The translations under genes and the position numbers were made by a program. A DNA stretch of 63,901 nt, the filler included, from Reclinomonas americana ATCC 50394 (taxonomy: Eukaryota), in assembly GCA_048213135.1 (NCBI GenBank). It is 19 parts of 19 records of this genome, joined end to end, with 100 filler letters (N's around TTAATTAATTAA, not from the genome) between each part and the next. Parts side by side here need not be neighbours in the genome. Positions count along the whole stretch, not along the records: positions 1,602 to 12,069 come from AFZH01019041.1; positions 12,170 to 17,137 come from AFZH01019042.1; positions 17,238 to 18,581 come from AFZH01019043.1; positions 18,682 to 19,720 come from AFZH01019044.1; positions 19,821 to 30,921 come from AFZH01019046.1; positions 31,022 to 34,985 come from AFZH01019047.1; positions 35,086 to 36,747 come from AFZH01019049.1; positions 36,848 to 38,610 come from AFZH01019051.1; 11 more parts are not named here. The stretch is one strand, 5' to 3'. Positions 6,825 through 63,360 of the stretch are shown here, piece by piece. The first letter of the stretch is position 1; every line of letters begins with the position of its first letter. The notes below the pieces were generated by a model. It saw nothing but the letters and a program-made list of their open reading frames with translations. It did no database searches and was not told where the DNA came from.

Positions 6825-9800
6825 ATGTCCGCTCGCCTCCTCCACCCGCACATCGCCCTCCGTGGTGGCGGCTGCGCACACTCGACGCAACGCAGTGGTG
6901 CCGCGGCGAACAATGACAACACTGGCGCAGCTGGAGCAGCAGCTGCGGCGTCGTCTGCTGACGGTGACAAGCGCAGAGGCGGCAGTGTCGTGCCCTTTGC
7001 GGGCACGCCGCCCTCGGAAGCAGTGGACACTGACAGCGGTAAGTGTGCGGAGGAGAACAAGGTGACAGAGCGCAGTACGTGTCTCATTGTTCGAGCAGAG
7101 AAATGGCACAATCTGGCTGCCACGGGCGACGGGCCGTCACCATCGCCGAAGAGGTTGTTTGATCCGGTGAGTCCTCTCGAACAGCATTATGCTGCACATC
7201 GCGTTGCTGTCGAGTCGCTGCGCTTCGCTCGCTCCCCTTGAATTTTTCGTGGTCGCATGGTCGCTGCGTTTCGGTTGTGTCCTCCCAAGTCGCTGCGCTT
7301 CGCTCACTCCTCTTTTATTCTCGCGTGTGGGATACCTTGCGTTTGTTGTGTCGCTCCGTCTTGTTGGCTGTGTAAGGCCTCTGCTGTCGCGTTGTCGTTG
7401 AGTCGCTGCGCTTTGCTCGCTCCGTTGGATATCTGTCTTGCGGGAAGCAAGGCCTTCTATTGTTCCTGCTTAGTCGCTGCACTTCGCTCGCTCCGTTTTT
7501 ATATCTATCATCTTGCTGGCAGCAAGGCCTCTCTTCCCTTGTTTCGTGTCTGCCGAGTCGCTGCACTTCGCTCGCTCCGTTTTATATCTATCTTGCTGGC
7601 AGCAAGACCTCTCTTCTCTTGTCTCGTGTCTGCTGAGTCGCTGCGCTTCGCTCGCTCCTCTTTATATCTTTAGTGAGGGAAGCAAGGCCTCTCTCTTTCC
7701 TTCTGTTCTTCCTATTGAGTCGCTGCGGTTCGCTCGCTCCGTTTGATTTCTGTCTTGTGAAGCGAGGCCACTTTCTATTCTGTGGCAAGTCGCTGCGCTT
7801 CGCTCGCTCCCCTTGAATTTCTCTGGCCCCCGCGACCTGCTCACCGCCCACCCTCTTCTCCCTTCAACAGTCCCCCTCCTCCGTCCCCACCCGCGTCTCC
7901 CCCGTCGAAACCCGCGGCTCCCCAACCTCCGCCCAGTTCCTCGCCAATGGCCACTCTCACCCCAACTCCCACCCTGCCTCCCACCCCACTTCCCACCCCA
8001 CTTCTCACCCAGCATCGTACCCGAGTTCCTATCCGACATCCCACCCTCTCTCGCAAAAGATCGCTCGCTATCAAGCACGCTGGGTGAGCGAGGGTGCCGC
8101 CCGCGGTCGATCTCCCGTTTGTGACGTCTTTGGCAGTGTGTTGGTGAGTGGAGCGGTGGCGGGCGCGACGTGTTTCATTGCGTGCTCACTCTGCTGGTCA
8201 TGTACAGGTCCCACTGCTGGCGAATCAGAGCAGTGCCGAGTACATGCATGGAGCAGAGGTTGCTGTGGATGCGCTGGAGTTGGTGCACACGTTTTTGGAT
8301 TCTGCAGAGCACACAGTTGCGTCGGTGGATGTGAAGGGATGCTTGCTGCTGAGCTTTCTCTGCGTTCCATTTCGTGCACGCTGCCTGCTCTTGGGGACAG
8401 ATTTCAGTGTTTTGAATGCAATGCGAATCTCCTTCGTCACTGCTCTCTCCTTTCCTCTTCTTGTCTCTCGGATTGTATCCATCATGTCTGCTCTACGATT
8501 CCTCGTGCTCTGGTCTGTTTCAGCGGTTCCACCATCTGCGCGCGGTCGCCGTATCTTGTCCCATCGTGCCCTCTTCCGCTCTACGTCTTATCAAACTTTT
8601 CCCGTGGTTCAGAAACGATTGTGCCTGATGAATCACCTTTGCCAAGGGATCCACCTGCTCTGTTCTTTTTATCCTTTCCCTCCATTCCTCTCCCTCTCCC
8701 TCACCCTCACCTTTCCCCTCCCCCTCCGCAGTTCCTCCGCGTGGTCGGCCTCCCCGGCTCCGGCAAAACCACCCTCCTCCGTCAAACCCTCTCCCGCGTG
8801 TGCGACCAATCAGCCATCCCCGTCATCGCCATCTACATTGAATGGGCGCACATTCGCGCCGCCAGCATGCTCCCTAATTCGTTCATGTCGGCGCTGCTCG
8901 AATTTGCCGATTTTGATGCTGCAGAGGTGCGCGCTGTGCACGTCACTGCCACTGCCATTGCTCTCTCTTTCCCTCGCTGATCGACGACACAGATTGCCGA
9001 ACTACAACAATCGCCACACACGTACGTGATCGCCATTGACGACGCAGTAGGCGGTGCGGCGGCGGCCGACATGTTTGCCGAGCAGCATTTGGAGGTACGG
9101 GCGATCTGTCCGCGAAGGCGAGTCACTGGTGTTTGCTGACTGCTGTGCGCAGAGATGGGGTCGTGTGCATGTGCTCATATCGTCGACGTTCATGGGCTCA
9201 CACCCTGTCGACATCAAGGGCGAGTTGATGTGTGCGCTGAGACCACTCACCGATGATCAGGTGTATGCGTTCATCAAGCGGTGAGTTAGAAGGGGAAGTG
9301 GTTGAGAGAGTAGAGAGGAGAGGCAAATTTCTCTCGCTCTCCACGTGTGGGACCATCCTTTTCACTGCTGTTTCTTTATCACCTTTTCCCAAAGGCACAG
9401 CAATTTGTCTGTGCACTCTGATGTCGGTGCATGTATCTTTTCTTTTATCATGATTTGCAGACTCCTCTTTTCCGGTTTGTTTCGCCTTGCGGTCTCAATT
9501 CGTCTGTTCTTCACAAATTTATCATCTCTGTTTCTTTGTTGCTTCTATTTTGCTCGCCTCTCTAGTGCTCTCCTCTGGATTCATGGTCATGACCATTCTC
9601 TGCCTTTTCACCTCCTTGTTGCTTTCTTTCTTGCTCACCTCTCGTGCCTCCTCTCTGTATCTTCCCTTGTTGATACTTTCTTGCTCACCTCACTCGTCTC
9701 CGTGTATTTGTTTATCCCTATTCCTTGCGTCTTCGCCTCCTTGTTGCTGTCTTTTGGTCATCTCTCTTGTGCCCTCCTCTGCATCGCTGCTCTCTGAGCC

Positions 9801-12014
9801 TTACCTCCTTGCTGCCCGTTCTTTCTTTGAGTTTATCTCTCTTGTGCCCTCCTCTGGTTTTCTCGGCCTTCTCTTCTTTGTACTTCTTCACCTCCTTGTT
9901 GCTCTCTTCCTTGCTCACCTCCCGTGTGCCCTTCTCGCAGCCTCCCACCACAATTGCGCGTCGAATGGGAGGACCTCGACTCACTGCCCCGGTTGCGAAC
10001 ATTTGCCTCCACGGTGCGTCTCATCGCACTCACCTGTCGTGCCTCCCCGCCCACCACTCACCCTTCTCCGCACAGCCCCTGACTCTCACGCTCATTGTGT
10101 GCGCACTGGAGGCACTGCGCAACACGGATCTGCGCTCGTGGAAAGACTCGCAAAAAGTGGTGCGATGGCACCTGTATGAGGCCTTTTTCCAGTGGTGGCA
10201 CACGAATGAGGATGGGTGGCAGGCGTTGGATTCGGTGAGTGGTTGAATGGGAGAAGGGAGAGAGAGAGAGGGAGAGAGAGAGAGAGAGTGGGTTGCGTTC
10301 GTGTTTATGCTCTGTGAAGAGCAGAATGCAGAAGAGAGAAGCGGGAAAGAGAGGGCTGGCGTTTATGAGTGAGTATTTTAAGCAGCACCCTCTGTGAGTG
10401 CGCATTGAGCGAAATTGTGAGAGGTTGTTCCCTCACTTCCCTTTCCCTTGCCTCTCGCAGCACTTTGTGGACGAGGAAGGCACTATGGCCGAGATTCTCG
10501 AGTCAATATGCTCGCGTCTTGCCACAGCCATGCACGCCGCCAATGTGACGTCGATTCGCCGAGTGGTGCGTGACTTGCAGCTTGTCCCATTTCACGCCGT
10601 TTCATTGCTCACTCGCGTGAGCACAGCTCGAGCCACAAGTGCGCGATGCGGAAGCCACTTTGCGGGAAGCAGAACTGCAGGTGAGAGGCTTTGTGTGTGC
10701 ATGCTGTAGCCGGCTCAGCAATGTCTGCTTTAGCTTCCATCTTGGCTGCTCTGATCTTGATTCTCCCTTTTCTGTCTTATTCCTTGCCCTTCGTCTCCTC
10801 CGTATCCTTATTGCTCATTTCCTTTCCAGTTCACATCTCACTTTCCAAGTCTGTCGCTTCTCTCCTTCCTCCTTGTTCGTGCTTTTATCACGCAACATAC
10901 CGTTTTCCCTTCCCTCGTCCGCGCTCTCCTCTACTCTCTTTTCTCGCCATTGTAAGAAACAGAGAGAATGAGAAAGAGAGAGAAAGAAACAGAGAGATTA
11001 CGGAAGAACACGTTTCCCCCACCTCTGCCAAGACGACAGTGATAGCAAGCGCGACGACGCAGAGACACACTCTGAGAAAAGGGAAGATAGACAATGCTCG
11101 GTCGCCCTTCCCCGTGTCCTTTAGCTTCCTACCTGCCCCTGCATCTTTAACTCTCTTCCCCTCATCTTTCTTCTCCAAATCTCCCGTCTCCTCTTTCTTT
11201 CTCCACATTTGTCTTATCCATTTCCCTGTCTCTTCATATCCGTTGCCTTGTCGCTTTCTCACTCATCTTCTCCTCACCTCCGTCTCCTCACATCCCTTGC
11301 CATCACCTCCCTTCTCCTCACCTCCTTTTCCTCACCTTACTTCCCCTCGTCTTCCTTGTCCTCATCTCTTCTCCCCTCACATCCCTTGCCATCACCTCCT
11401 TCTCCTCACCTCTTTCTCCCCTCGTCTCTCTTCCCCTCCTCCTCCTCTCATCTCCCTTCTCCTAACACCCCTTCTCCCCAACGCAGGGCTCGGTGGGCGC
11501 CCCCCTCGTCACCGCGCTGAAACACGACGTCGGCAAACTGCAAACCAATCACCGTCTCTGGTTCCTCAACCTCTCATGGCGCGCCACGTACCTCGATCAA
11601 CTCTCACCAGCAGTTGCGTGTTGCGATGCGAAGGCCATGCACCCGCTAGCCACTCATTGTCTACTTGCCACAGATTCTCCTGATTCCACGCGCCACTGAC
11701 GCTTTCGGCTTTGTACACGACTCATTCCTGGACTACCTGGTTGCCACCTCCGCACTGGATGCGCTGGAGGCCTGGGTGGACGAGGTGCGTGGCACGAGGC
11801 TGACTGTTGTCTGGTCTGCGAAGCTCACCTACTTTTGAATGCACAGACGCGTGACAAGATCGACACACCGGGCGCCGACGAGAATCTGGCGCAGTCGCCA
11901 CTGGGATGCCGACCACTGTCACTTCATGTTGCGTCTGGCGTGAGGCTTGCTGTACATGTTTATCCAACCTTGCCTCTGTCTCGTTCGCTGTTTGCTCTCG
12001 CGCCTTCTCGCTCT

Positions 12015-12069
<55 letters not shown>

Positions 12070-13977
12070 NNNNNNNNNNNNNNNNNNNNNNNNNNNNNNN
12101 NNNNNNNNNNNNNTTAATTAATTAANNNNNNNNNNNNNNNNNNNNNNNNNNNNNNNNNNNNNNNNNNNNTGCCCTCTCTTGCTCTCACTCTTTCTCCCTC
12201 CCGTTGTCTTCTTCGCATTTCTTCTTTTCTTCTCGCTCCTCGTACTCACTCGTTTCACCCATTTCTCTATCTCTCTCTGTCCCACCCCGCCATCGTCTCT
12301 CTCTCTCTTTCTCTCTCTCTCTCTTTCTCTCTTTCTCTCTCTCTCTTGTCCCTCTATTCTTGTACCTCCTTCCCCTTCCCCCTCCTTCCCCTTCCCCCTC
12401 CTTCCCCTTCCCTTCTCTATCTCTTCCCTTCTCCCTTCTCCTTACCCTTCCGCCTCCTTCCCTTCCCCCTCCCCGCAGTGCTCACTCTGGCCCTCGACCA
12501 AGCCACCCTGCGCGCCGACTGGCCCCTCGTGCGCCTGCTGACCACCGGCACCTCGGGCGGCTCACCCAACGTACTACAAAAAACAGAGAATCTCGGCGGC
12601 GTGCTGCACCTGGCGGCGGCGGCCGGCGACGTTGAAGTGTGCAGTCTGGTGGTGGAGACCGATCCGGCGACCGTCAGGTGGCGCAGCCACGGCGACGGCC
12701 TGCTGGCGGCGCATCTGGCGGCGCAGGGCGGCCACCACAATGTGCTGCAGTATCTGCTCTCCCTCGACTCGTCCACGGCCTCGGCACGCGCCGACTCGAA
12801 TGGCTTCTTGCCGATTCACTGTGCGGTGACGGCCAACAGTGTGGAGTGCGTCGATCTGTTGCTGACCACGGATCCCGAGTGTGGTCTCGGGCGTGATCGG
12901 TCGTACGGAATGACGCCGATGCATATTGCGGCGCATCACGGGCATGCGAGAGTGATTGAGCGGTTATTGGAGGTGAGCGGGAGGGGAGAAGGGAGAGGGG
13001 GGGAGGGAGGGAAAGGGGGAAGGAGAAGGGTTTGGGTGTCTGCGTTGCTATCCCTCCTTTCTCTATCCTTGTCCCTCTCACTCTTTTCTCCATTCTCGAC
13101 AATTATTGATTGCTGTATCCCTATTCATCCCTTTTCCGTTCTCATTCTTCCTTGCGCTTCTTCCTCTCTGGGCCGTTCGCTCTTTCCCTTCATCTCTTTC
13201 TCCCTTCTTCCCTTCCCCTCCTTCTCCCTTTCCCCCTCCTTCTCCCTTTCCCCCTCCTTCTCCCTTCCCCCCCCCCCTCCCTCCTCCCATTCTCCTCATT
13301 CTTCCCCCACTCACCCCCTTCCCTATCTTCGCAGTCCACCGGCCGCGCCGGCACGGAATCCTGCGACCGCCAACTCTTCCTGCCCATCCACCTGGCGGCA
13401 CTGGCCGGCAAGGAAGACGCATGCCGCGCACTGCTCGCCGTCAACCCCAACACCGCCATGGCGTGCGGCGTCGGTGCCGTGTCGCCGCTGCATCTGGCCG
13501 CCGCGCAAGGCCACCTCGGACCCGTGCAACTGCTGACGGAAGCGTGCCCGCAGGCGGTTCACATGCGCGACGACGAGCAGCGATGGCTGCCGCTGCACTT
13601 TGCCGCTTTCAACGGTGCGACGAGTGTGTGCGAGCGATTGCTGTCTCTCGATCCGTCCACGGCGCTCGTGAGGGCGAACGATGGATCGTTGCGTGGATGG
13701 GAGGAGAGGGAGAGGTGGAAAGAGAAGAATGCTCATTCTTTCTCTCTATCCCGCCCACAGACTACCGGTGCACTTGGCCGCTGTCAAGGGTCACGTCTCG
13801 ACGGTGAACTGCTTGGTGACTGCCGCTCCCGATTCACTGGCCGTGCGCAGCGACGCGGGCACACCATTAGAGGTGGCACACCAGGCGCACCAGGATGCCG
13901 TCGTGCAGCTGTTGCATCGCACGGCCACTGCTCGATTGTTGCGTGGTGTTGTCGGGATTGTGGTGGTTGTTGAATGA
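6825..13977 (+). CDS. STAND NACHT NTPase with C-terminal ankyrin repeats (NLR-like); many exons, at least one exon probably lost in gap 12070-12169
   Basis: VPL..ALELVHTFLDS-FLRVVGLPGSGKTT (Walker A, ~8730-8772), YVIAIDD (Walker B), ISS, LRPLTDDQV, PLTLTLIV, FGFVHDSFLDYLVA (NACHT winged-helix motif), then about 9 ankyrin repeats (LHLAAAAG, TPMHIAAHHGH, SPLHLAAAQGH, LPVHLAAVKGH) at 12479-13977. Confidence 0.8.
7211..7820 (+). repeat. Intronic array with conserved AGTCGCTGCGCTTCGCTCGCTCC core (locus 1, NACHT gene)
   Basis: About 8 near-identical cores separated by ~45-90 nt spacers. Confidence 0.9.
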
Positions 13978-15302: not shown

Positions 15303-15339
<37 letters not shown>

Positions 15340-17423: not shown

Positions 17424-19237
17424 CAACCTGTCTTTCCGTTCGCTGAGAGACAAGACTCACACTGCTTGCCTTCGCTCGCTCCTCTTGAATCTTCTCGTTC
17501 CTCGCTCTTTGCCTTCACAAGAGAGCCGATCCGATCAAAAGTCGATGCGCTTCGCAAGCTCCCTTTAGATTCTTTCAGTCGTGACCAGACTAGTCGCTGC
17601 GCTCGCTTCGCTCGCTCGCTCCCGTTTTGTTCTCTCAGCTGCGACCGTCTACCTTCACCTCGTTCAGTGCCGAGTCGCTGCGCTTCGCTCGCTCCTCGTC
17701 ACCCTTTTTTCCATGCAGAAGTGAGTCTGTTCTTGCAAAGTCGCTGCGCTCGCTTCGCTTCGCTCGCTCCATTTTATTCTCTGTGTCGCGATCGTATTCC
17801 TTCATCTCTCTCACTCTCTGACCTTGCTGAGTGGCTGCGCTTCGCTCGCTCCTGTTCAATCTTTTCTTTTCATGCAGAAGAGAATCTGTCCTGTCATTGT
17901 CGCTGCGCTCGCTTCGCTCGCTCGCTCCATTTTATTCTCTGTGTCGCGATCGTTTACCTTCATCTTTTCACTCTCTGAACTTGCTGAGTTGCTGCGCTTC
18001 GCTCGTTCCTGTTCTCATGAACAAGAGAGTCTGCCCTTCCAAAGTCGCTTCGCTCGCTCGCTCCCATTTATTTCTCTCCGTCAACCAACCGCCTTTTCCA
18101 TTCCTATCACTCTCTGTGAGCTGAGTCGCTGCGCTTCGCTCGCTCCACTTCAATCCTATATTTCATTTCCGTTACCTGCAGTCCTGTCATTGTCGCTTCG
18201 CTCGCTCGCTCGCTCGCTCGCTCCCCTTTATTCCCCTCACCACCCTCTGCCCCCCTCCCTCTAGCCTCTCGGAGGCCGACATGACCAAGAGCAAGGAAAC
18301 TCTCCGCCGCATGGTCGAGCGCCTCAACGCCGACATCACCCTGGTGGCCGAGCGCGACGGCGAGCTGGGCAAGGTCGCCGAGTTCCTCGTGCGCCAGGTC
18401 TGCGAGGAGCAGTACATTGACATGCGTATCGCCGTGTGCGGCAATGTCGACAGCGGCAAGAGCACCATTATTGGCGTGCTCACAAGAGGTGCGCTGTCTA
18501 TGGCAAAGCGTGAGAGTCTTCATTGATGATGTCTGACTCACTTTCCCCCACTCACAGGTGTCCTCGACAATGGCCGTGGTCNNNNNNNNNNNNNNNNNNN
18601 NNNNNNNNNNNNNNNNNNNNNNNNNTTAATTAATTAANNNNNNNNNNNNNNNNNNNNNNNNNNNNNNNNNNNNNNNNNNNNAGAGAGAGAGAGAGAGAGA
18701 GACTCCCATTTGCTCATTCCCCTTTTTTACCCCACACAGGTCTCGAGTGTCACGGGCGACTCGCTGGACCAGATCCGCCAGTTCCTCAACCTGGCGCCCA
18801 GAAGACTCGACTGGGGCACGCTGTCGCAGGAGCCGGCCGAGGTGCTGCTCGACGAGACCTTCCACGTGACGGGCGTGGGCACGGTGGTGTCGGGCACGGT
18901 CACGCGCGGCAGCATCTCGGTGGGCGACACTCTCATGCTGGGTCCCGACGGCAACGGCCACTTCACCAAGGTGCCCATCAAGGGCATTCACACGAAGCGC
19001 GTGCCGGTGCGGCGCGTGATGGCCGGCGCCAGTGCCAGCTTTGCGCTGAAGAAGATCAAGCGGAACCAGATTCGCAAGGGTGAGAGACGAGGGGGAAGGG
19101 GGTGAAACGACAGGACGCTCACGTTCTTCTGTGTTGAAATAGGTATGGTGCTGGTGGATCAGTCGCTGCGCCCGAAGGCCACGTGGGAGTTTGAGGCAGA
19201 TATCGTCATCTTGTACCATTCGACGACTATTAATATC
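14991..19237 (+). CDS. GTPBP2: Translational GTPase of the GTPBP1/GTPBP2 family; 3' end lost in gap
   Basis: EDDEGSVEYK, FERLVTQMKYRLTEGQGECLYELGVEDSG, RIAVCGNVDSGKST, GVLDNGRG, VSSVTG, GVGTVVSGT, IRKGMVLV, WEFEADIVILYHSTTI; first exon ATG-AG at 14991 is phase-consistent with exon 15500. Confidence 0.93.
17590..18225 (+). repeat. Intronic conserved-core array (locus 2, GTPBP intron)
   Basis: Same GTCGCTGCGC(TCGC)TTCGCTCGCTC core, here with two alternating spacer types. Confidence 0.88.
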
Positions 19238-20461
19238 GTTGCGGGAGAAGGGCAAAGGGGGGAAAGGGGAAGAGAGGGAGGAAGAGGGAATGCGTGAGAG
19301 AGAGAGAGAGAGAAAGCGTCAGTGGAAGGCGGGGAAGTGAGAGGAATATGAAGGAAACGGGGGAAAGGGGACAGGGGGAGATGGCGAGAGAGGGTGAGCG
19401 AGAGAGAGAGGTAAAGGAAAAGAAAGTGCATGTAGTTAAGGCAGCAAGCACATTCTCTGTTGCCATCGGTGCTGTTGGATCAGAAAAACGTTGCTCCTTG
19501 TTTATCTTGACGGATGCTGGAGAAAAGGAGCACCTCCTACCTCTTGTGGCTCGCAGTGAAATTAGTTGAATCTTTCCCATCTGCTTCTTCTCTCTCTCCT
19601 CTGCATTCTCTCTCTCGCTGTTCGTCCCTTTCCCCTCTCCTCTCCTCCCCTCTCCTCCCTTCTCCTCCCTTCTCCTCTCCTCCTCTCTCCTTCCCTCCCC
19701 TTCCCTCTCCTTCCCTCCCCNNNNNNNNNNNNNNNNNNNNNNNNNNNNNNNNNNNNNNNNNNNNTTAATTAATTAANNNNNNNNNNNNNNNNNNNNNNNN
19801 NNNNNNNNNNNNNNNNNNNNGAGAGAGAGAGAGAAAGAGAGAGGAGATTGTGGGTGTGCGTGCTGGATCTCGTCTGTAATTGTGAGTTCTGTTATTTGGA
19901 GGCTTGTGCAGTCTGTCACCTGTTCTTCGCAGTCTGTGTGTGCGTGTATGTGAGAGAGAGAGAGAGAGATACAGTGTGCTCGATCTCGTGCGTTGGTGTG
20001 AGTTCTGTTGTTTGAAAGCTTGTGCAGTCTATCGCCCGTTCTTCGCAGTCTGTGTGTAGGAGAGTGAGAGATCGTGAGTGAGTTTGTGTTTCCGTGTTGC
20101 GAATGACAGAGTGAGAGAGAGAGAGAGAGAGGGCCTGGGAGTGTGTTCTCGATTCCCTTCGCCTTAATCTCTTCTCGCTTCCTTCGTCGTGCGTGAGCTT
20201 GTGGTCTGCTGCTTGCTCGCCTGTTTGCTCTTTGAGCCTTGCTTTCCCTGCGTGACCACCACTTTGTTTCTTCTGTCTTCTCTCCTTGTCCCTCTCTCTC
20301 GTCTTCCTGGCCTTGTTCGATCCCCCTTGACCTCTTTCTCCCCTGCACACCTTCCCGGCGCTTTATCACGTGCTTTACTACGTCGTGTGCACGAATGCGC
20401 TCGTCGAGCATTCGCTTCCTTCTCTTCCCCATCCCTCACCATTGACGCTCTCCGCTTGCAG

Positions 20462-37315: not shown

Positions 37316-45410
<8,095 letters not shown>

Positions 45411-45562
45411 ATGCGTTTACTTACAGTCCGAGCAATCGTGCGCGCGCGCGTGTGCGTGTCCGTGGGAGAGCACGCGTGGCCCCCCCTACCATACAGGCGA
45501 CTGTCGTGATTCCGTCGCAGTGGCGCATCGTCGTCCTGGCACGAGAAGGAGAAAGTGGGGTG

Positions 45563-46446
45563 CTACTGGCGGCCACCACCCATCTCGAGTTGCTTCTCCA
45601 GCGCGATCAGTTTCTCCACGCCAGCGTACACCGACTGCACGCACATCAGTGGCGAGACGCCCAGGCGCCGCACATTGAAGACCTCCATCAGGCCGCGCAC
45701 GTGGTCCACCTGGCGGATGTCGAGATGGCGCTGGCGGAGGACCTGCGGGGAAAGGGGAGAAGTGAGAGGGAGAAGGGAAGAGAATGACATGGGATGAAGA
45801 AATCGTTCAAAAATGAGGGCGAAGAGAGAACTAGAAACGGTGGGGATATGAGACAGAGGTGAGAATAGAGTAAGTTGTGGACAGAGGGCACAGAGCGAGA
45901 GCAAGTGAGAGTGGAGTGATGGAATTCTTAATGGTAGCGACAAAAAGCATGCGTCCGAGAGAGTTGACGAACGGAGGGATGATGCAACGCACACACACAC
46001 ACACATGCACAGTGACACGGAGAAGGAGAAGGAGGAGGAGGAACAGAAGAAGAAGAAGAACATCATCATCAATAACAACAATAAAAATAACGAATACCAA
46101 CAGCAAGAAAAAGAAGAGGAATAGAAAGCAGGCAATAATCCACATGGCTTGAGAGACTATAGAGAGCAGTGAACCGGAGCAGTAAGAAATACACCAACAA
46201 ACAAAACAGAAATGATAAGAAACCGTGGCTGCCATTGCGCTCCCGCTCACCCTCCATTTCTCTCTCTCTCTCTCNNNNNNNNNNNNNNNNNNNNNNNNNN
46301 NNNNNNNNNNNNNNNNNNTTAATTAATTAANNNNNNNNNNNNNNNNNNNNNNNNNNNNNNNNNNNNNNNNNNNNTCTCTCTCTCTCCTCCCTTCCCCTCC
46401 TCCCCTCCTCCCTTCCCACTCACCTCCCCGACTCTCTTCTCTCTCA

Positions 46447-46480
<34 letters not shown>

Positions 46481-47551
46481 TCCCCTCTCCCCCTTCCCCT
46501 TCCCCCTTCCCCTCTCCCCCTCTCCCTTCCCCTTTCTTCCCTCCCCACGCACCTCTCTCATCACCTCCCCGCTCTCCACCAACCTCGGCAACCGCACCGT
46601 CACCGACACCCGCATCCCCGTGCCCACATTCCCCGGGCACACCGTCACAAAGCCCAACTCCGCCGACACCTCGAATCGCACATGCTCGGCCAGCAGCAGG
46701 AGAACGCGCTGCACGCGTGCATACACACGCGCCAGCCTGCCCGTGCGCTCCGACGCCACCACCTTGACATGATCCTCCTCATTGACGAGCACCAACACCG
46801 ACTTGTCCCGATTGAAGAACAAGGCACGCCCGTGCGGCCAATCCGCCTCCAACATCGCCGCCCGCTGATACCGATCCGCATCGGGAAACAGCTGTCGCGT
46901 GCGCTCATCCAGTCGCCCATCACTCAACGATCGCCACTCGCCCACCAGCAACTCCGTGTCCGCTGCGGCCTTGCGCACCGCCTCCATCACCAGCTGCTCC
47001 ACGCGCACTCGCTGCGCACGCGACATGCGCGGCGCGAGCGGGAAGCTGTGCACATTTCGCGCCACTCGCACGCGCACGGCGTACACGTAGCGCTCGTCGA
47101 GTGGAGGCACGTCATTCTCGCCCCACTCTGCTCCTCCCATGTGCACGTGATGCCGCGGCACCACTGCTCCGTCCAGTCGATGAACGTGCGCCAGCAGCGC
47201 CTCCAACAGCTCGTTCCTGCTCTCATATGCCTTTGCGCAGGCGATCATCAGTCCCACTCGCGCGTCTGCATGCTGGAGGCCGATCAGACGCAGGCACGAC
47301 TGCTGTGAGTGTGCTGTGCTCCACAGGTGCGGCGAGAGGAGAGAGAGGCCACCGCCTGCACGCTGTGCCTCCCAGACTTGATGCAGCGGGTAGAGAGTGT
47401 GTGAGCAGGTGGAGGGCGGGAGAGCAGTGGTGAGATGCCATGCAGAGCGCGAGGAGGAGGTGGGCGAGGGGCAGGTGGGGGAGGAGGTGGCAAAGGAGGA
47501 GGAGGAGACGAGGAGGAGGAGCAGGAGGAGAAAGAGGTGATTGCGTGGCAT
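45563..47551 (-). CDS. ATP:guanido phosphotransferase (phosphagen/arginine kinase family) with N-terminal signal peptide
   Basis: RVRVARN, DWPHGRALF, VNEEDH, LGFVTVCPGNVGTGMR, N.RRLG.S..VQ..GVEKLIALEK; N-terminus MPRNHLFLLLLLLLVSSSSFA. Confidence 0.9.
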
Positions 47552-47713
47552 GAGTGGATTTGATGAGGACGAGGACACAGCGAGGAGACGGAGGACACCC
47601 TTGTCGTTCATTGGGTGGCAGGTTGGGATGCTCTTCGACAATTAAGCATCGCAGTTGTTGCTGGTGTTTTCTATTCCAACAAAACACACAAAACAAGTTC
47701 ATGACATCACCCT

Positions 47714-50541: not shown

Positions 50542-53500
50542 ATGTCGCGTGCGAGCTTGAGTGCAGAGGTGAGCGCATAGGAGAGAGGGAGAGAGAAGAG
50601 TGAGAGAAGAGAGGAGACAGGAGAAACAAAGACCTGAGAACGCAGAGAGAGAGAGAGAGACAAAGAGAAGAGGCACACAGACACTGCAACAGAGGCAGGC
50701 AGAGTGTGAGAGAAGAGTGAGAGAGAGTGTGTGTGTGAGAGAGACAAGACAGAAGAGTGAGAGGAAGGAGAGAGATAGAGAGAGCAGAGAAACAGGCTGG
50801 AAAGGAAGGGAAGTGCAGTGAGAAGAAGAGACAGACAGACAGACAACGAGGGAGACACACACACGCACACACACACACAGACAGAGAGAGAGAGAGAGGA
50901 GAGTTTACTCATGTCTTTCTTGCCTTTTGTGTGTGTGTGTGTTAGGAAGCACGTGAGGCGCTGCAGTCGAAGCGTCGACAGGGCACTGGTCGACGGACCA
51001 CCAGTCGCTCGTTTGAGTTCCGCTCACGCAACTCCTCCATTGGCTCGATTGGTCGGTGAGTGTGTGGGAAGAGGAGANNNNNNNNNNNNNNNNNNNNNNN
51101 NNNNNNNNNNNNNNNNNNNNNTTAATTAATTAANNNNNNNNNNNNNNNNNNNNNNNNNNNNNNNNNNNNNNNNNNNNGATCAAACAGGTGAACAAAGCAA
51201 AGATCCTGTTACACAGAGAGAGGAGGGGAAGGATAGAGAGAAAAGTCAATGACCACACAGATCAGAATGTGGGATAGGATCATGTGGGAGAGAGGGGAGA
51301 ATGAGAGTGAGAGAGAAGGGCAACGATGTGCGAGGATGATGGAGAGGGAAGACTGTGACCAAACAGGGGAACAAGGCAAAGATCCTGTCAGAGAGAGAAA
51401 GAGAGAGAGAGAGCAGGAGGAGGGAGGGAGAGGAAAGCCAATGACCAAAGAGATGAGAACGAGGGCCAGGATCATGTGGTAGAGAGGGGAGAGTGAGAGT
51501 GAGAGAGAGGGGCAACGATGAGCGAGAGGAGGAGGACAGAGAGGGAAGCCTGTGACCAAGCAGGTGAACAAGGGCCAAGATCCTGTCAGAGAGAGGGAGA
51601 GAGAGGAGGGCAACGATGAGCGAGAGGAGGAGGATAGAGACGGAAGCCTGTGACCAAGAAAGGTGTGAACGAGGGCAAAGATCCTGTGCAAGTGAGTGAA
51701 TGAGTGAGAGAGAGGCGAAGGGCCAGGCCGAGGAGGATGCGTTGATGAGCCACAGTGGAGGCAGGGCAGCGATTCGCGACGAGAGGGAGAAGGATTGAGA
51801 GACAATGTGAGGAGAAGGGTATTGACAGAGTGGGAGATAGTGAGAGAGTTGGCACGGCGAAGGAGCGAGATCGGTCGAGGAGAGGGGGAACGGTGCAAGA
51901 AGAGGCCAGGGAGCCCCACACAGAGAGGGAAGAGTGAAAGGTCCGCCATTTGGTCTCTCTGTCCGCTCGCAGGCTCCTCTGTGTAGAGAGAATGCCGATG
52001 CACATAGAAGGCAGACGGATGTACGTGAAACCTAAGAGAGCCGAGTGACTGAGGCTTTGCCTTGGAATTGCGTCGTCACAGAGAGAAAGAGAAGAAGCTG
52101 CTCAGCGAAGTTTCTCTCCCCTTCACCTTCACCAACCCTTCTCTCTCCCCCCATCCCGTACAGTCGCACCGGTGTCAAGGCCAAGGACAATGTCAAGTTG
52201 AACGCCGACGGCCTGGAGGATGTGGACGACTTTTTCCGGTTCGTGTTCCTCGCCGTTTCTCCTTTTTTGCAACTTCACCGACTCACACTTCGCCTCCGTG
52301 TTCGCCAGTGATGACGACTTTAGCGGCTCCTCCGACATGGAGGACATGGACTTGCCGCTGGCGCCCGACGCCGACAAGGAGAACGTGGTGGAGCGCAGTT
52401 GCGTGTCGTCATACATGCACACACCAACTTTTCGCACACGGTGTATTTATCCTCTTGCGCAGCTCCACGTGACAAGCGGGTCAGCATTGGTACTGGGGTG
52501 GGACTGCTGCCGACGTCGGCCAGTGCCTCGGGTGAGAGTACGTGCATGTCGAGCGTGCGGTTTTCTCTTTGATGCTCACGAACGGAGATGTAGCTCGTCG
52601 TTCGTCTCGCCGCAACAAGGACAACAAGGATGTGTCGCCTGGTGAGTCGCGAGAAAGACAAGACGATCGTCAACGCCGCTCTTATCCTCCTTTCTCGATC
52701 TTGCAGCGAGCATCGGCGCTCCCGTGCGCGACCCGACCATGAGTGGTGAGACTGTCGTGTTCAACTCTGCTGGCCGCCGCGTGCCCAGCAGTCGAGGTGA
52801 GGGAGCGCAGATTGTGATTTTTTTGTCTGGCAGCTCGCTGACTTGAACGATGCAGCGGACGCACGATCAATTCCAGTCATTCAGCCGAAGCGCAAGCTCG
52901 ATTTCCCGGAGGAGGATGGCGGTGTGTGATTTCTGTGAAGGTCCAGAAGTCGTCACTGCATGCTTATCAGTGTGTACAGGTGCATCAAGCAGTACCCAGC
53001 AGAAGCTGAAGGAGCTGGCAAAGCGCGGTCTCTCTGCCGCCTCGCGAAAGCCACAGGACCAGGTGCGGCGATCACTTTCCTCCTTTGACAGCTTCTTCCT
53101 GCCTATTCTCTGGGGTCGTATCAAAATGGCCACCCTCGCTGCTCTTGATTTCTCCCCCCTCTCCCTCTTCTCGTCCGCTCTTCTCGCCTTCCTGTCCTCA
53201 TCGTCTCCCTTCCCTTCCCCTTCCCCTTCCCCTTCCCCTTCCCCTTCCCCTTCCCCTTCCCTTCCCTTCCCTTCTCCCTCCCTCCCTGCTTACTTCTCCT
53301 CATCAGATCATGGCCTCCCCACCACCAGTTTCCGATGTCGAGTCTCTCGCGGCTCCAACTTTCGGTTTGCTTTGCTTTGTGGTTGACATTGCTTCACGTC
53401 CGCCACTCACTGTACGGTGCGCACCGCAGAGCGGGACATGGAGGAAGAGGAGGACGAGGAGCCGGCACCAAAGACGCGCACACCTCGTGCGTCGTCGTCT

Positions 53501-54834
53501 GCGAAGAAGACGGCCGCCGAGAAGAAGCCGAAGAAGACGACCAAGAAGGAGGCGGCCAAGAGTTGCGTTGAAACGGGTCGTGAGTGACTTGTACAAGCCC
53601 TTCCTCACTCCGCCTGTTTCAGAGCCGACCAAGGCTGCGGCCAAAAAGGCCAGCAAGTCGGCCAAGATGGAGGTGGAGGAGGAGGACGACGAAGACGATG
53701 GTGCGGAGAGCGAGGTCGATCGTCGCGAGAAGGATTCGGAGTTGCCGGCGCAGATGCGGCGACGACGCCGCCGTACACTGGGTTGCGTTCCTCTCTCCAT
53801 CACTACCTCCGGCTTTCGTGTGTTGGTGACTCATTCATGGCGTGCAGAGACTCCCACTCCACTCAAGAGGACGCAGATCCTCATGTCGCCCGACGGACCA
53901 GTGGAGATTGCGTTGACCGACTCGGACGAATCGGACTATGACGACGAGCAGGCGGCGGCTGCGGCCATGTCGGTGGACTCGCCGTCGACGCCGGTGACAG
54001 TGTCGGGTGAGTGGGTGAGATTTGAGATGGGAAATGAGAGAGACGAGAGGCACACGAAAGGGAGACAGAAAGCGAGAGGCGAGAGGCAAAGGGGGCAAGA
54101 AAAGAGAGGCGAGAGACGAGAGGCGAGAAACGAGAGGCGAGAAACGAGAGAGAGAGAGAGAGAGAGAGTCCATGAGACAAACTATGTTGTACAAATCCTC
54201 ACGCTTCCTCCCTCCCCCCCCCCCCCCCCCCCACCAGCCAATGGCAAGAAGAAGGCAGCCAAGCGGTCGGCGCAGGCCATGGAGGTGCCTTCGCGTCCCT
54301 TTTCTGCGATCATCATGCGTCGCTTCTCATTTTCTCATTCGGTGTAGATGGACGATTCGCTGCCGGTGCGACGATCGCAGCGCCACAAGGTGCGACCCAC
54401 AGAGTTCTGGCGCAACGAGAAGGTGCGCATGCGCACTGCGGCCGACGGACTGCGTGAAATCGTTGCGTGCATCCTCGTGAGCGCCATGTACTGCCTGCTT
54501 TCCCTCAACACATCAGCTGTCGTACCACAGGTCGGCATCTCCCCTGGCTACAAGACCCCTGCCAAGCCGCCGCGCAAGAGGCAACGCACCGTGTACGACG
54601 AAGTGCCGCGCAAGCTGGTGGTTCGCAACGAGAAGAAGGAGACGTTCGAGTCTGGTGCGTGGGGGGGGTTGTGGCTGCAAGAGATGCAACGTATATATGC
54701 TCACCGCATGGATACAGGTGTGGTGCGCGTGCCCGGCGACTTTGAGCTGACCGAGCTGGATCCGGGAGAGGGTGACAGCCCCAACCGCCACTACTTGGTG
54801 GATTACGGATGGCACACGGAGTCGTTTGATGCTG
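50542..54834 (+). CDS. CENPC: Centromere protein C (CENP-C/Mif2); cupin 3' end lost in gap
   Basis: N-terminal IGSIGRRTG..NADGLEDVDDFF (Mif2_N-like), CENP-C motif VRRSQRHKVRPTEFWRNEK (54366-54422), start of cupin (SFDAG). Confidence 0.88.
51180..51690. repeat. Diverged ~100-bp tandem repeat in a CENP-C intron
   Basis: Recurrent GGGCAACGATG..GAGG, TGTGACCAA, AAGATCCTGT. Confidence 0.75.
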
Positions 54835-55091: not shown

Positions 55092-55144
<53 letters not shown>

Positions 55145-56000: not shown

Positions 56001-56043
56001 TTTCAGCGCCACCCTCTACTTCCCCCCACTGCCTCCCACCCAC

Positions 56044-56926: not shown

Positions 56927-56980
<54 letters not shown>

Positions 56981-58402: not shown

Positions 58403-58545
58403 CTCAGACATCACGAAAAAAAGCGAGAAAAAATCGAGATGGCTAATGCTGGCGTTTCTGCAAGAGAAACCACGGCTCAACAACAACATCAACAACAACT
58501 TTACTAACCCAAACAGCAACACAGCTGCATGATGATCACCAGCAT
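58403..58545 (-). repeat. Further copy of the 32271/33650 dispersed repeat family
   Basis: CTCAGACATCACG.AAAAA.CGAGAAAAA.TCGAGATGGCTAATGC and AAACAGCAACACAGCTGC. Confidence 0.8.
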
Positions 58546-59403
58546 GGATTTGACGCCGAATTCCACAAAGGAAACGAGAAAGATAGCAAGAGGTGTTGGT
58601 ATAGGGATTTGTGGACATTTGTCGCATTTTTGGAATGTGGTGAATGAAGTGTTTTTCTTCAGAAGACATATGTAAAACCAACAGAGCCAGGCAACACGCA
58701 ATTAGGAGCTGAGGTGCAGTCGAGTGGTTGTCGTTGGTGAGGCCGATCCGGATCCGTTGGCAATAACATTACTATCTAGACAGGAACACCTCTGCAAAAA
58801 CAAACACCTCATTCGCCAAAAAGCATGACAACGAGATGATAATCTTCGACTAAGATCTGCAGCGTATCGTGCGGACCAGGCGTACGCGTCACCTCGCGGT
58901 CCATGTCAAACATCAGCTCCTCACATCCTTCTCTCTCACCCTCCTCTCTCTCTCTCTCTCTCTTTCTCTCGCTGTCGCCAAGCACAGGTAAAGCCTCACA
59001 CGTGCACAAAGCACAACAAAAAACAACGTCTTGACGTATCCACAACTCTACTGCAACACGAAACGCCAGTCGTTGAGGGCAGCGGCAGGTTTTCTTGAGC
59101 TTCGATCGCGAACAAGTCGGGCTGTGATCTTCACCGAATTAGCGCGGTTGTACAGTCGCTTAGTGTTTTCTGTGGTCACGGCACATCGAGTCTCGAATTC
59201 GGGGAAAAGCCAAAGCCAAGCAAACAAAGCAACTCCAAGAAGAGTTGTCTGGTGCCGAGGTTGAAGACAGCAGCCAGCAAATCGGCGGCGACGTGCAGCT
59301 GTTACTGTGTTGTCACTGGCCCGATTGCTGTTGCTGTGTCGCCACCGGCGCAGTTGAGGTTGCGAGACGACAGTCGTTGCTGCGGATACAGCAGTCCTTC
59401 ACT

Positions 59404-60220
59404 TTAAATCTTCAACCCCGACGTGCAATCCCCGCTCGTCGCACACGCCGTCACCGTCGACGTGGCCACCACGCCACTCTTTGGCACACACTGCTTGGTC
59501 GACGCCGTGAATGTCCACGAGCCGCAGGCAGACAACTGAGAGCACCACAGCGAGCACGCCTGTGGTCCGGTAGTTGTTTTTATCGCCCACGTGAGATCGC
59601 CACCAGGTCGATCTGCATGCAAACAACAAACAAATTAGTCACGATTCTCTCATTTCTCATCTCCTTCCCCTCCGGGGACTCACCCGTGTTGGTCAGGAAG
59701 CCGCTGCTGTCATATGCCGCCGCACTCGTCTTGCGCCCCGACACCAGGCAGAAGTGCGAGCCACACACGTTGCTGGTCTCTGCATTGGCGGCCGCTGCCG
59801 GCACGGTGCTCTGCATGCAACAGAAGAGGTCTGTGAGCTCGCCATTCCGTCACAAGCTCCCTCCTCTCGATTACGCGCCTTCAGAGTGCACACACTCACG
59901 CCAAAAGTGTTCGACGCCGCAGCAGCATCCAGGAATGTCCACGACCGACACTGCGAATACTGATCGCACATCTCACAACATCCGACCTCACTTCTTGCAG
60001 AAGCAACGGTGGCCACAATCGTGCCGCCGGGCCGATCCACGGCCTCAAACAGGCACACTTCCAACGCCGCTGCTCGACATGACGAAGAGAGTGAGACGGC
60101 AGAAGATGGTGGTGCATGCGGTGAGAAATCAACGCAACGAGCCACAACTCCATTCTGCGCCGTTCCGCAACCCGTATTCGATGCTGCACGCGCACCGCAA
60201 TCAATCATCGTCAGCACCAA
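59404..60220 (-). CDS. Protein with two PAN/Apple (PAN_4-like) domains; may be the C-terminus of the upstream adhesin
   Basis: DRPGG..CCEMCDQYSQCRSWTF and DRPGGD..ACSLWCSQLSACGSWTF..CVPK..CTSG. Confidence 0.75.
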
Positions 60221-60555
60221 TCACATGTTCAAGAGAGAGAGAGAGAGAGAGAGAGCACGTCTCCGTTGGCTGAACAACACCCGGCGGAGCCAACGGTAGT
60301 AACAACATGAGAGAGCAGGCAGGAGTGACAGGCAAATATCCCCACTCTCTGCTGCACACTACAAGGTTCAAGGACCAACAAGTGTGCACTGGAATCTTAC
60401 ACCCACTCTGCTTCTTCATCGTGCTTCACTATCTACCAATCACTCGCCAGCCTCAGCATCACAGTACCTCTGCTCTTCTCCTTCCACTGCTGCCATTCCT
60501 TCTCCCCTCCCCCTTCCCCTTCAATTCGCATGGCCCTCCCTTCCCCATGGCGCAC

Positions 60556-63360
60556 CATACACAATCGTGAACTGCTTGGTGTACGTCAGCGTGCCGTCGC
60601 TCACTTGCACAAACACTTGCAGTCGCCGACTCAGTGGCGGAGCCACCGAGATGGTCAGCTGATTGCCGCCAACCAGGCTGAAGAGAGCCGCATGCACGCC
60701 GCCCACAACGCTGAATGTCGGCGTCTGTCCCGTGTTGAGATCCACCATGCTGAGGGTGCCCACGGTGAACGGAACCGTGGCACTCGAGTACGTCTGCGAG
60801 CCCGACAGCAGAATGTCGCTCGGGCCAACAGTCCCTGCAGATACACTCCGTTTAGTCGACGCACGCATACACACTCATTCACACATGCTTGCATACATAC
60901 AAACACACATACACAGACTGGGAGAGGGAACAGAGAGAGAGAGAGAAAGAAAGAGAGAAAGAAAGGAGAACCAGCGAGAGAGAGAGAGAGGAACAACATG
61001 TGGGAAATAAAAAGCACAGCTCTAGATCTCCACACACAAACAAACAAGAAAACAACAGCTGAAGGCTCCCTGCACTCTCCCTTCCCCTCATTCCTCACCA
61101 ATGGCGAATGCTGACACGGCTACATATCCCTCTGCTGGCGCCCATCGTGCGCACAGCTCGTACGTGCCTGTAGTTGCACCCGCCGCTCCAATCGTCAGCG
61201 TAATGCTGGTCGAACTGCCGAATGCGCTACTAATGGTAGTGCTGGCCACGGCCGTCGGTGGTGTTGTGGCGCCACAAAGCGGAGTGCCCAACACATACGC
61301 CGACGCGTCGGCCGAGTTGTTCACCAGCCCAGTGCCCGTCAGTGTTATCAACTGGCCAGCCAGTGCCGACACGAAGGTGGCCGACAGCGATGTCACAGTG
61401 GGTGCTGCATGAAGGAGGGCAATAGGCAAATCAGCATCATCGTGCACCACAACAAAACACAATCACAATAACATCAAACCAGAAATGTTGAGGGTCTGAT
61501 CGAAAGACATGGCGGGATTGCCGTTGTCGGTCGTGCGCACAATCACCACCAACGACGCCGTCACTCCCGCAGTCGCAAACTGCAGCTGATTGCCAGACAC
61601 AATCGTCACCAATGCGCTGCTGGCACCGCCCACCACCGAATACGTGAACGACTGCTGCGAGTCCACATCACTCGTGCTCATCGTACCAATCGCCAGTCCC
61701 ACCGTGCTGGGCGGGATGTACGCGCTCGCACTCAGAGTCACAGCCGTCGGCGCATTGTTCACTGCGGGAAGACAAGGTCAATATCCACGCCGAGAAACGA
61801 ACAACACTCCCAGTCAATCATCCACTCACCCGACGTCACAGTGAATGACTTGTCGAAGAACATGGGCGGCGTGCCATTGTCGAATGAGCGAATCGTGACG
61901 GCCAGTGGACTTCCCGACTGGCCCGCCGACGTGATCTGCAGCTGCGCGCCTCCTCCGCCCAGGGAGAAGACGCTGCTGTTCGCTCCACCGGTGATAATGT
62001 ACGTGTACGACTGGCTCCCGTTGCTGTCGCTCGTGCTCATCGTGCACACGGGCATGCTGGCAGTTGACGGTGCGACATATGTGGTGGCAGGGCACACAAT
62101 GTCAGTGGGCACCGCGTTGGAGGTGGTGAATGACATGGTTGAGCCGGTGAGAGTACTGGGCACAGTAGAGGTGGAAATGGCACGAAAGTAGTACGTCCAG
62201 TTGGCAGCGAGCGATGTCAAAGAGGCGGTCAGGGCGGTGCTTGAGGCGACACCTGAAGAAGCCGGGGTGGCCGAGACGGTGGTGGACCCGATAGTGAGTC
62301 GGCGGATGGTGGAGTTGCCATATTCTGCGAGCACAGTGAGCACCAAGTCAGTCGACCATTCAACAACGGACCTCGTACCTGCAAAATACAGGGTGGACGA
62401 AGCGGCATCGTATGCCATGTAGTGCTGCGTTCAAAATGATAAAATTGAGGTGCAAGCAGGCTCCCGTCGGGAACGCAAACAAACGAAAGCGCGTACCGGC
62501 TGGCTGAACCGAGCAACAGTGAGTGGACTCCCATCCGCTGATCCACTCACTCCCGCAGAGCCCGCGATAGTTGTCACAGCACCAGAGCTGATAACAATTT
62601 GTCGAATTGTGTGGTTGACCGCCTTTGTGGTGCGCGAGTGATGAGATGACGAAGATTGCAAAGATCTCAGTGCAACACGCAACATCAGAGACGTAAAGAA
62701 CACCTCGCCCTCGATCGACCAGGACCCCAATCGGTGTATTGAATCGAGCAGCAGTACCAGTGGCATCTGTCGACTGGGCAACNNNNNNNNNNNNNNNNNN
62801 NNNNNNNNNNNNNNNNNNNNNNNNNNTTAATTAATTAANNNNNNNNNNNNNNNNNNNNNNNNNNNNNNNNNNNNNNNNNNNNAAGGAACAGGGGGAAGGA
62901 GACGGGGAATGAAGGGAGGAAGAAAATATGACAACAAGGGACAGAAAGCAAAGAAGTACGCGGAGATAGCGTGGGTGGCAGAAAGTGAGATCTCCACACA
63001 CCAATCTGTGCTGATCCTATTGAAGTCCACGACGTGCCCATATCGAATGAAAGGCACACTGTTTGTGGCGCATTGACGCCGGTCAAGTCGATGGACGCTC
63101 GAAACTCGCCGGCGTTCAACAATGTGCCGGAAGCCGTCAGCCTAGTGCCCGAGCCGCATGTGCCGGTGTTCGTCATCTCCACCCGCTGTGGCGAGCGATA
63201 CACGGTTGAGTCACGTGCACACACACACACACACGCATCACAACAAATCAGGCGAATAGTCCAAACGCAACGAGATTGCCATTCAGCGTGTTGCCAGTGT
63301 CGAGAATGGAAAGCGGTGATGCCGCAGACGGCCAGAACGATGTTGGCATGAAGCTGAAGG
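60556..63360 (-). CDS. Large extracellular adhesin-like protein: NHL repeats, three cadherin-like domains, IPT/TIG domain; continues off the right side
   Basis: AARFNTPIGV..LYVSD-AVNHTIRQI..VTTIAG..ADG..ARFSQP (NHL); NNAPTAVTLS..IGTMSTSDVD..FTYSVVGG..GNQL..VRTTDNG (cadherin-like); PTVTSLS..ITLTGTGL (IPT). Confidence 0.8.

Follow-up and report, generated by a model that had tools for sequence, protein, structure and literature searches.

GTTGCGT 5′ splice sites in Reclinomonas americana and their apparent recognition in a displaced register

Introns that begin with GTTGCGT, and more rarely with GTTTCGT or GTTACGT, occur beside introns with ordinary GTGAGT and GTGCGT donors in a stretch of Reclinomonas americana DNA of 63,901 nucleotides (nt), hereafter the window, which chains 19 contigs (1.0–11.1 kb) by N44-TTAATTAATTAA-N44 linkers; adjoining segments of it are not necessarily adjacent in the genome. 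The interpretation that we favour, with moderate confidence, is that these words, called GTT-type below, are genuine GT–AG donors whose recognition register is displaced, and that the small nuclear RNA (snRNA) recognising them is probably unlike human-type U1 at its 5′ end or is a second variant.

GTTGCGT is found 31 times in the window (21 on the + strand and 10 on the − strand), whereas 100 dinucleotide shuffles gave 8.82 ± 2.72 and never as many as 31. The surplus of about 22 is as big as the one shown by GGTGAGT, the most frequent heptamer among ordinary donors (36 observed, 11.5 expected; the corresponding counts for GGTGCGT are 18 and 8.0), and it belongs to the entire heptamer. By the same measure, GTTGCG followed by A, C or G is found 29 times with 30.2 expected, and GTTTCGT 6 times with 6.9 expected. 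A first-pass annotation of this DNA, which had listed 20 sites, counted GTTGAGT among the donors of the class; that word is instead depleted (5 observed, 11.3 expected) and is used by no gene model.

Cut position and use of GTT-type donors

The cut can be located in a copine-like gene with very short exons (contig 43501-46274), for which a spliced model was built from the frame view. An exhaustive profile search with one exon yielded 150 relatives, the best of them from a bivalve, plants and an oomycete, and the 45 that span the domain were made into a scoring profile; a word-index search with a copine exon gave no match, and the Pfam single-exon profile coordinates are too coarse for junction placement in this gene. 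Four of the nine donors in the modelled part are GTT-type, and three of these four are fixed by homology. In the lines that follow, indel counts are the numbers of homologues (n = 45) with an indel at most 4 residues from the junction, and the runs are those of the gene model described further on.

44363..44422, + strand: 60-nt intron, GTTGCGT donor, phase 0, GDAETK/GTDVF; 268.9 bits if cut 3 nt downstream; indel in 1 of 45
44794..44863, + strand: 70-nt intron, GTTGCGT donor, phase 2, ASNY[P]LSIV; 268.2 bits if cut 3 nt downstream; indel in 0 of 45
44912..44976, + strand: 65-nt intron, GTTTCGT donor, phase 2, PWGE[M]EKYDD; 269.0 bits if cut 3 nt downstream; indel in 0 of 45
43889..43960, + strand: 72-nt candidate intron, GTTGCGT donor, in a variable-length loop; higher-bonus and equal-GTT runs
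44021..44303, + strand: ordinary comparison intron, G/GTGCGT donor
44021 and 45175 (GTGCGT), 44588 and 44680 (GTGAGC), 45007 (GTGAGT), + strand: the ordinary donors of the gene

With all cuts placed at the GT, the model scores 274.9 bits against the 45-homologue profile. The sole alternative that keeps the frame is a cut 3 nt downstream, which would make a GC–AG intron. This shift costs 5.9–6.7 bits at the three GTT-type donors and 4.1–6.6 bits at four ordinary donors; since the cost is similar at both donor kinds, the resolution is equal. At 44794 the next exon begins with C, and the conserved proline is obtained only from GT..AG boundaries. To judge from the homologous proteins, the introns at 44363, 44794 and 44912 are cut exactly at the GT. 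Homology is not decisive for the candidate at 43889, where all 45 homologues carry indels and the scores are 274.9 bits spliced, 274.5 with the downstream cut and 270.8 with the intron retained.

A further case is provided by an ankyrin-repeat gene with Pfam Ank matches:

13688..13760, + strand: 73-nt intron, GTTGCGT donor, RANDG[S]LPVHLAA; all three runs

Here the cut at the GT leads to the G-x-(L/T)P-x-H spacing seen in other repeats of that protein (NGFLPIH, YGMTPMH), while a cut 3 nt downstream inserts an extra residue. Removal of the GT..AG intron restores a gap-free conserved protein at this site, as it does at three GTT-type introns of the copine-like gene. The earlier reading of the protein motifs ASNYP/LSIV (44794) and DGS/LPVH (13688) as placing the cut at the GT is borne out, the former by homology and the latter by ankyrin spacing.

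To count such introns we used a semi-Markov gene model that combines a three-periodic coding score with a matrix for acceptors, a prior on length and donor classes set by the author. It was run with a lower bonus, with a higher bonus (a comparable bonus being given to ordinary, test and decoy words) and with an equal bonus for every GTT word. The higher-bonus run modelled 73 introns and used the available sites as follows.

GTRMGT: 31 of 243
GTRMG[ACG]: 17 of 616
GTT-RMG-T: 15 of 37
GTTTCGT: 2 of 6
GTTCGT: 2 of 26
decoy words: 2 of 164
all other GT: 4 of 6249

At equal bonus, GTT-RMG-T was thus preferred over the decoys (Fisher p = 6e-11). The lower-bonus run, with 47 introns, used 9 of 37 GTT-RMG-T sites and 1 of 164 decoys. 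When every GTT word received the same bonus, 47 of 1,328 GTT sites were used, among them 13 of the 31 GTTGCGT (p = 3e-12), where independent positions would give 4.1; the shifted GCGT after a T at +3 is accordingly more frequent than independence of positions allows, and the lack of such enrichment, which the first-pass annotation had named as a refuting outcome, did not occur. The known copine introns were recovered to the extent of 7 of 8 at the higher and 3 of 8 at the lower bonus, and again 3 of 8 when only ordinary donors were favoured and GTT words were given an equal bonus. Models deprived of donor information, which are too weak for exons of 30–160 nt, found 0–2 of the 8, yet GTTGCGT was the donor heptamer that they chose most commonly. 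A donor-blind local score (two-sided coding potential, acceptor and length) placed GTTGCGT first of 910 heptamers: 13 of the 30 scored occurrences fell in the top tenth (p = 2e-6), as did 1 of 29 GTTGCG[ACG], although this score is unspecific, with 14 of 127 GTGAGT in the top tenth. Simpler procedures were uninformative. A test for an acceptor 50–90 nt downstream gave no signal, even for GTGAGT, and when short GT..AG pairs were ranked by the coding potential on either side, in-frame pseudo-introns within long open frames dominated the list.

Altogether the GTT-type class comprises about 17–19 of the 73 modelled introns, a fraction that is model-dependent and rough; GTT-type donors thus appear to serve roughly a quarter of the introns in the window, in agreement with the substantial minority proposed earlier. 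At least one of the three runs used 12 of the 20 sites listed in the first-pass annotation, and five donors outside that list were used as well: 13938, 37998 (GTTACGT), 41237, 60138 (−) and 63271 (−).

Sequence rules and recognition register

For the comparison of intron anatomy, 17 GTT-type and 48 ordinary modelled introns were available. Median length is 69 nt for the former and 66 nt for the latter; acceptors read GCAG or ACAG in 16/17 and 44/48, respectively; and CTCAY is present at most 45 nt upstream of the acceptor in 12/17 and 23/48, against a background of 7.4% before any AG. Where found, CTCAY lies 13–37 nt before the acceptor, and since the gene models make no use of it, it constitutes an independent check. 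Because acceptor, branch-like motif and length equal those of ordinary introns, the 3′ side does not represent a separate system. For the same reason U12-type introns are ruled out, and the 5′ word of the GTT-type is unlike the minor-class (U12) consensus. Introner-like repeated introns are also ruled out: an all-against-all comparison of the interiors of the 65 introns gave six similar pairs, none of them between two GTT-type introns. As a separate observation, the probable branch motif CTCAY, often in the form ACTCAC or GCTCAC, is found 13–26 nt before the acceptor in introns such as 10014-10075 and 37998-38060.

The two kinds of intron part company at the 5′ end. The last exon base is G in 2/17 GTT-type and in 37/48 ordinary introns (Fisher p = 3e-6); likewise, G precedes 3 of the 30 scored GTTGCGT occurrences, which confirms the statement of the first-pass annotation that the exon base ahead of most of these donors is A, C or T. 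All 17 GTT-type introns have C at +5, while the matching +4 of ordinary donors is divided between A (27) and C (21; Fisher p = 2e-5), and position +4 of the GTT-type is G in 14, T in 2 and A in 1. The working donor word is therefore GTT-N-CGT, in which N is usually G. Its T at +7 is required, since the enrichment of GTTGCGT does not extend to GTTGCG[ACG]. G/GTGCGT and GTTGCGT have G-N-TGCGT in common, cut before the second G in the one and before the first G in the other.

The data show the donors, their sequence rules and a cut directly before the GT. From the requirement for T at +7, the block common to both donors and the loss of the exon G preference, we infer in addition a displaced register, the first intron G occupying the place that the last exon G has in ordinary donors. 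The recognising RNA would most likely pair one base away from its usual position relative to the cut, and the GU itself would set the cleavage point at a later step. A change in this RNA is more speculative. Because C at +5 is obligatory and human-type U1 would hardly pair with the word, the recognising snRNA probably has a 5′ end unlike that of human-type U1, unless a second variant of U1 is present. Among the conceivable options, the host U1 might be altered opposite +4/+5, a second U1 might be complementary to GUUGCGU, or proteins might carry most of the recognition. No Rfam family was found at gathering score in the 63,901-nt window, and no snRNA gene at gathering score or at E ≤ 1, the matches at E ≤ 1 being chance-level microRNA and small nucleolar RNA (snoRNA) ones.

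How poorly the word pairs is indicated by duplex energies computed with the human-type U1 5′ end AUACUUACCUG, as printed in PMC4856993, which may not be that of the host. The predicted duplex amounts to −0.6 kcal/mol for GUUGCGU, as compared with −6.1 for GUGCGU and −10.5 for GUGAGU, and the means are −1.3 kcal/mol over the GTT-type donors (n = 17) and −7.6 kcal/mol over the ordinary ones (n = 48). GUUGAGU reaches −3.8 kcal/mol, exactly in the shifted register.

Several considerations weigh against a displaced register read by a changed snRNA. Pseudouridines and U1 proteins are left out of the duplex energies, for which the U1 sequence of another organism was used. GTGAGT donors are still the commonest, and a single altered U1 that pairs with C at +5 would suit GTGAGT worse. 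The count of G at −1 (2/17) is not clearly under base composition, and the case for the register has 17 modelled introns as its basis. The gene finder is home-made, with limited recall and donor classes set by the author; outside homologues fix three junctions only, all in one gene; and all junctions are read from genomic DNA.

A possible but doubtful variant is that two parallel 5′ recognition systems operate in the major spliceosome, ordinary U1 serving GTGAGT and GTGCGT and a second U1-like snRNA with the 5′ end ACGCAAC serving about a quarter of the introns. A dedicated second U1 would account for the near-invariant word and the obligatory C at +5, and would explain why GUUGAGU is lacking and why the last exon base does not matter. 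If such a two-U1 system exists, the introns of the second class would otherwise carry the same branch and acceptor signals.

It is less likely still that ordinary human-type U1 simply pairs one base out of register, as at rare human GUUAAGU-like donors, and that this mode is far commoner here. The TGCGT block common to G/GTGCGT and GTTGCGT, the required T at +7 and the lack of a G preference at −1 are what such a shift predicts, and the register is established in human cells (PMC4856993, PMC9311317). Nevertheless, the GUUGCGU duplex with AUACUUACCUG contains two internal mismatches, whereas GUUGAGU, which is predicted to pair better, is under-represented and unused in the models; nor does a plain shift agree with C at +5 in 17/17 introns when the matching ordinary position admits A more often than C. 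Where the first-pass annotation had left the choice between the rare human shifted-U1 mode and a variant U1 or U6, the plain human-type pairing thus fares badly, on account of the duplex energy, the unused GUUGAGU and the invariant C, and a variant U1/U6 fits better.

Alternatively, U1 could pair normally with G+1 and U+2, one U of +2/+3 looping out and pairing resuming at GCGU. This has a low probability in our estimation, somewhat below that of the plain shift, even though it would place the cut at the GU without any shift and a +2/+3 bulge has been validated in human, with 68 sites predicted and 54 left after curation (PMC4856993). A bulge would keep the pair between the exon −1 G and U1 C9, and is for this reason ranked below the displaced register: the preference for G at −1, seen in 37/48 ordinary donors, would be expected to persist or grow, contrary to the 2/17 seen in the 17 modelled introns. 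The difficulty of C at +5 with human-type U1 would also remain.

It is very improbable that GTTGCGT is no splice-site class at all, but a coding or repeat word (Val-Ala codons, for instance, or a dispersed repeat) that coincides by chance with exon ends. About 9 of the 31 GTTGCGT are indeed expected by chance, 17 occurrences were unused in the higher-bonus run, including 34278 and 34667 in low-complexity GT-rich DNA, and the first donor-blind tests were weak. Against this stand three junctions verified by homology, acceptors and CTCAY motifs at the right distances, equal-bonus decoys used at only 2 of 164 sites, and the want of interior likeness between any two GTT-type introns. Least probable of all are GC–AG introns truly cut 3 nt downstream, before GCGT, with exons ending in GTT: the frame would be kept at every site and GC is a legal donor dinucleotide, but the cost in bits arises at all three testable copine sites, the extra residue needed is absent from 44–45 of the 45 homologues, the ankyrin spacing at 13688 is broken, and neither the need for T at +7 nor the constancy of the GTT is explained.

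Individual sites and other features of the window

The GTTGCGT strings listed in the first-pass annotation are present on the + strand, and at 62683 on the − strand, except for 19238, which was given as GTTGCG(T) and actually reads GTTGCGG. GTTTCGT is found as described at 21585 and 44912, and GTTGAGT at 38555; the same string at 28429 (+) exists, with its coordinate off by one, the GT beginning at 28430. Listed sites are backed by homology or repeat spacing at 44363, 44794, 44912 and 13688, by a profile boundary together with the models at 21585, and by the models at 11613, 38238, 43889, 52398, 53562, 53782 and 54462. Those at 62683 (−) and 19238 are plausible but unproven donors, and at 11928, as at 19238, the intron extends beyond the contig end. 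Five listed sites (8316, 34278, 34667, 28430 and 38555) found no support as donors. Two of them, 34278 and 34667, are the ones in low-complexity GT-rich DNA; at 38555 the reading frame meets an in-frame TGA within the motif, and this may be the end of a coding sequence. The introns and sites outside the copine-like and ankyrin-repeat genes are given below.

11613..11673, + strand: 61-nt intron, GTTGCGT donor; all three runs; ACAG end, CTCAT upstream
19238..19244, + strand: GTTGCGG following the GTPBP1-like exon that ends in YHSTTINI; its intron extends past the contig end
21585..21652, + strand: 68-nt intron, GTTTCGT donor, AMPK-beta-like gene, LILPVPD/HVTLGHAY; equal-GTT run
37998..38060, + strand: 63-nt intron, GTTACGT donor, outside the earlier list; lower-bonus and higher-bonus runs; CACTCAC, ACAG acceptor
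38238..38306, + strand: 69-nt intron, GTTGCGT donor; all three runs; donor-blind local score at the 96.8th percentile
41237..41315, + strand: 79-nt intron, GTTGCGT donor, outside the earlier list; higher-bonus and equal-GTT runs
52398..52462, + strand: 65-nt intron, GTTGCGT donor, exon end GCGCA; all three runs; local score at the 99.9th percentile
53562..53622, + strand: 61-nt intron, GTTGCGT donor; all three runs; 99.8th percentile; read-through meets a stop
53782..53847, + strand: 66-nt intron, GTTGCGT donor; all three runs
54462..54530, + strand: 69-nt intron, GTTGCGT donor, preceding exon with the RRSQRHKVRPTEFW motif; higher-bonus and equal-GTT runs
60070..60138, − strand: 69-nt intron, GTTGCGT donor, outside the earlier list; higher-bonus and equal-GTT runs
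62623..62683, − strand: 61-nt candidate intron, GTTGCGT donor, GVLYVSD/AVNHTIRQ; open spliced frame; used in no run
63186..63271, − strand: 86-nt intron, GTTGCGT donor, outside the earlier list; all three runs

At 21585, the Pfam AMPKBI match (profile 3-34) stops at the last codon before GTTTCGT. In the higher-bonus run this donor was joined to a 776-nt intron instead of the 68-nt one. The spliced product presumably corresponds to an AMPK-beta C-terminus; the exon gave no match in a PDB or a word-index search. At 62683 (−), the YVSD/AVNHTIR junction proposed earlier does give an open spliced frame and a 61-nt intron, but no model run used the site; the flanking protein is one that we take to be an NHL repeat, and Pfam gave no match on the split halves.

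In the contig with 19238, the upstream exon matches GTP-binding protein 1 in the PDB (E = 4.8e-34). The next exon abuts GTTGCGG with no other GT nearby, and its similarity to human GTPBP1 presumably ends there; with no acceptor in the contig the cut is not fixed. The best relatives of a GTPBP1-like exon, 58–67% identical, are metagenome proteins, Heterolobosea sp. BB2 and Naegleria, together with the Amoebozoa transcriptomes of Vermamoeba, Artemidia and Nolandella, and a metagenome scan for relatives of the exon found no match. The exon ahead of the 54462 donor (54400-54461, +) encodes SLPVRRSQRHKVRPTEFWRNEKV, a sequence that may resemble the CENP-C motif.

Some donors read GTTCGT, with T for G at +3 and no displacement: 52239-52308 (+), a 70-nt intron with the highest local score among all GT sites, and 24627-24685 (+), used in the higher-bonus model. 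T at +3 would therefore also be tolerated in the ordinary register.

The window has a G+C content of 55%, and its contigs often break in CT/GA microsatellites. Long open frames encode the eukaryotic domains DSBA-like, ankyrin, EF-Tu domain 2, AMPK-beta interaction domain, B-box, MATH, ATP:guanido phosphotransferase, WD40, CBS and PAN. Further features are as follows.

1502-1601, 12070-12169 and 16 further places: linkers
3240-4083, − strand: 15-nt tandem repeat of about 56 copies, giving a five-residue protein repeat, in an 811-residue open frame with a DSBA-like thioredoxin domain
7214-7795, 17592-18131 and 29289-29846, + strand: family of dispersed, satellite-like units, about 80 or 157 nt long
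12973-13109, both strands: overlapping sub-threshold microRNA-precursor models over 110–140 nt (E 0.009–0.5, far below gathering scores) in the ankyrin-gene contig
46376-47641, − strand: 422-residue open frame with an arginine/creatine-kinase catalytic segment (Pfam ATP-gua_Ptrans, profile 43-140)

The units of the satellite-like family contain TGAGTCGCTGC..CTTCGCTCGCTCC..TTTTAT, and through them GTCGCTG is four times over-represented (69 against 17.2). One GTTTCGT, at 7541, is inside an 80-nt tandem array (7466-7757), and a GTTGAGT at 7397 belongs to the same cluster, just upstream of the array. The overlapping matches at 12973-13109 suggest that the CT-rich DNA there contains an inverted repeat or a hairpin. 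In the kinase-like frame no N-terminal domain was detected and the gene runs off the contig; a protein atlas returned generic arginine/creatine kinase clusters only.

Comparison with known systems and implications

In the work of Roca and Krainer, human shifted-register donors are reportedly rare and read by ordinary U1, and A is said to be favoured at the human position that matches +5 here. The donors described in this study share with these sites a U at +3 after the GU, a consensus displaced by one base, cleavage at the GU, a first intron G where the last exon G normally pairs, and no need for G at −1. They differ in serving about a quarter of the modelled introns, in being nearly a single word, GUUGCGU, with an obligatory C at +5, and in hardly pairing with human-type U1. 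Both shifted and bulged U1 registers are established for human 5′ splice sites (PMC9311317, PMC4856993). The +2/+3 bulge (Roca et al. 2012; Tan et al. 2016, PMC4856993) resembles the present case in its extra U after the GU and a consensus that resumes one base later; its human count is tiny (68 predicted, 54 curated), and it keeps the −1 G pair, in contrast with the 2/17 versus 37/48 seen here.

A different precedent is offered by the Archamoebae (Roy and Bowser, bioRxiv 10.1101/2022.06.08.495308). According to that preprint, the U1 5′ end of Entamoeba is AACAAAC, with GUUUGUU donors, and that of Mastigamoeba is ACGUAC, so that U1 5′ ends are able to move with the donor consensus. The Entamoeba word resembles ours in its U at +3 and in a preference at +7. 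In that intron-poor genome, however, the GUUUGU donor is nearly universal (about 88–90%), whereas here two donor families coexist in an intron-rich genome and even in one gene, the copine-like one. U12-type introns likewise form a minority class with a rigid 5′ word of its own beside the major class, but the 3′ signals here are those of ordinary introns. Literature searches for GTTGCGT or GUUGCGU, and for protist donors of atypical form whose U1 has co-evolved, gave no description of this class among the papers listed, so that one may exist elsewhere. What appears new is that a donor of noncanonical register, elsewhere a rarity, makes up a major and nearly invariant class here.

What is known of how the U1 binding site is separated from the cut comes almost entirely from reporter constructs and from a few dozen human sites that are themselves rare. 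If a quarter of the introns in a genome carry a rigid word with an extra U, beside ordinary introns in the same genes, that genome would be a large natural sample of this phenomenon. It would also be a test case, at high intron number, for the co-evolution of donors and U1 5′ ends, for which the evidence so far is drawn chiefly from lineages with few introns, Entamoeba among them. In practice, a gene finder that has learnt GTRAGT-type donors would misannotate about every fourth intron here. Reclinomonas americana could thus show how the place where an intron is cut becomes uncoupled from the sequence by which it is recognised.

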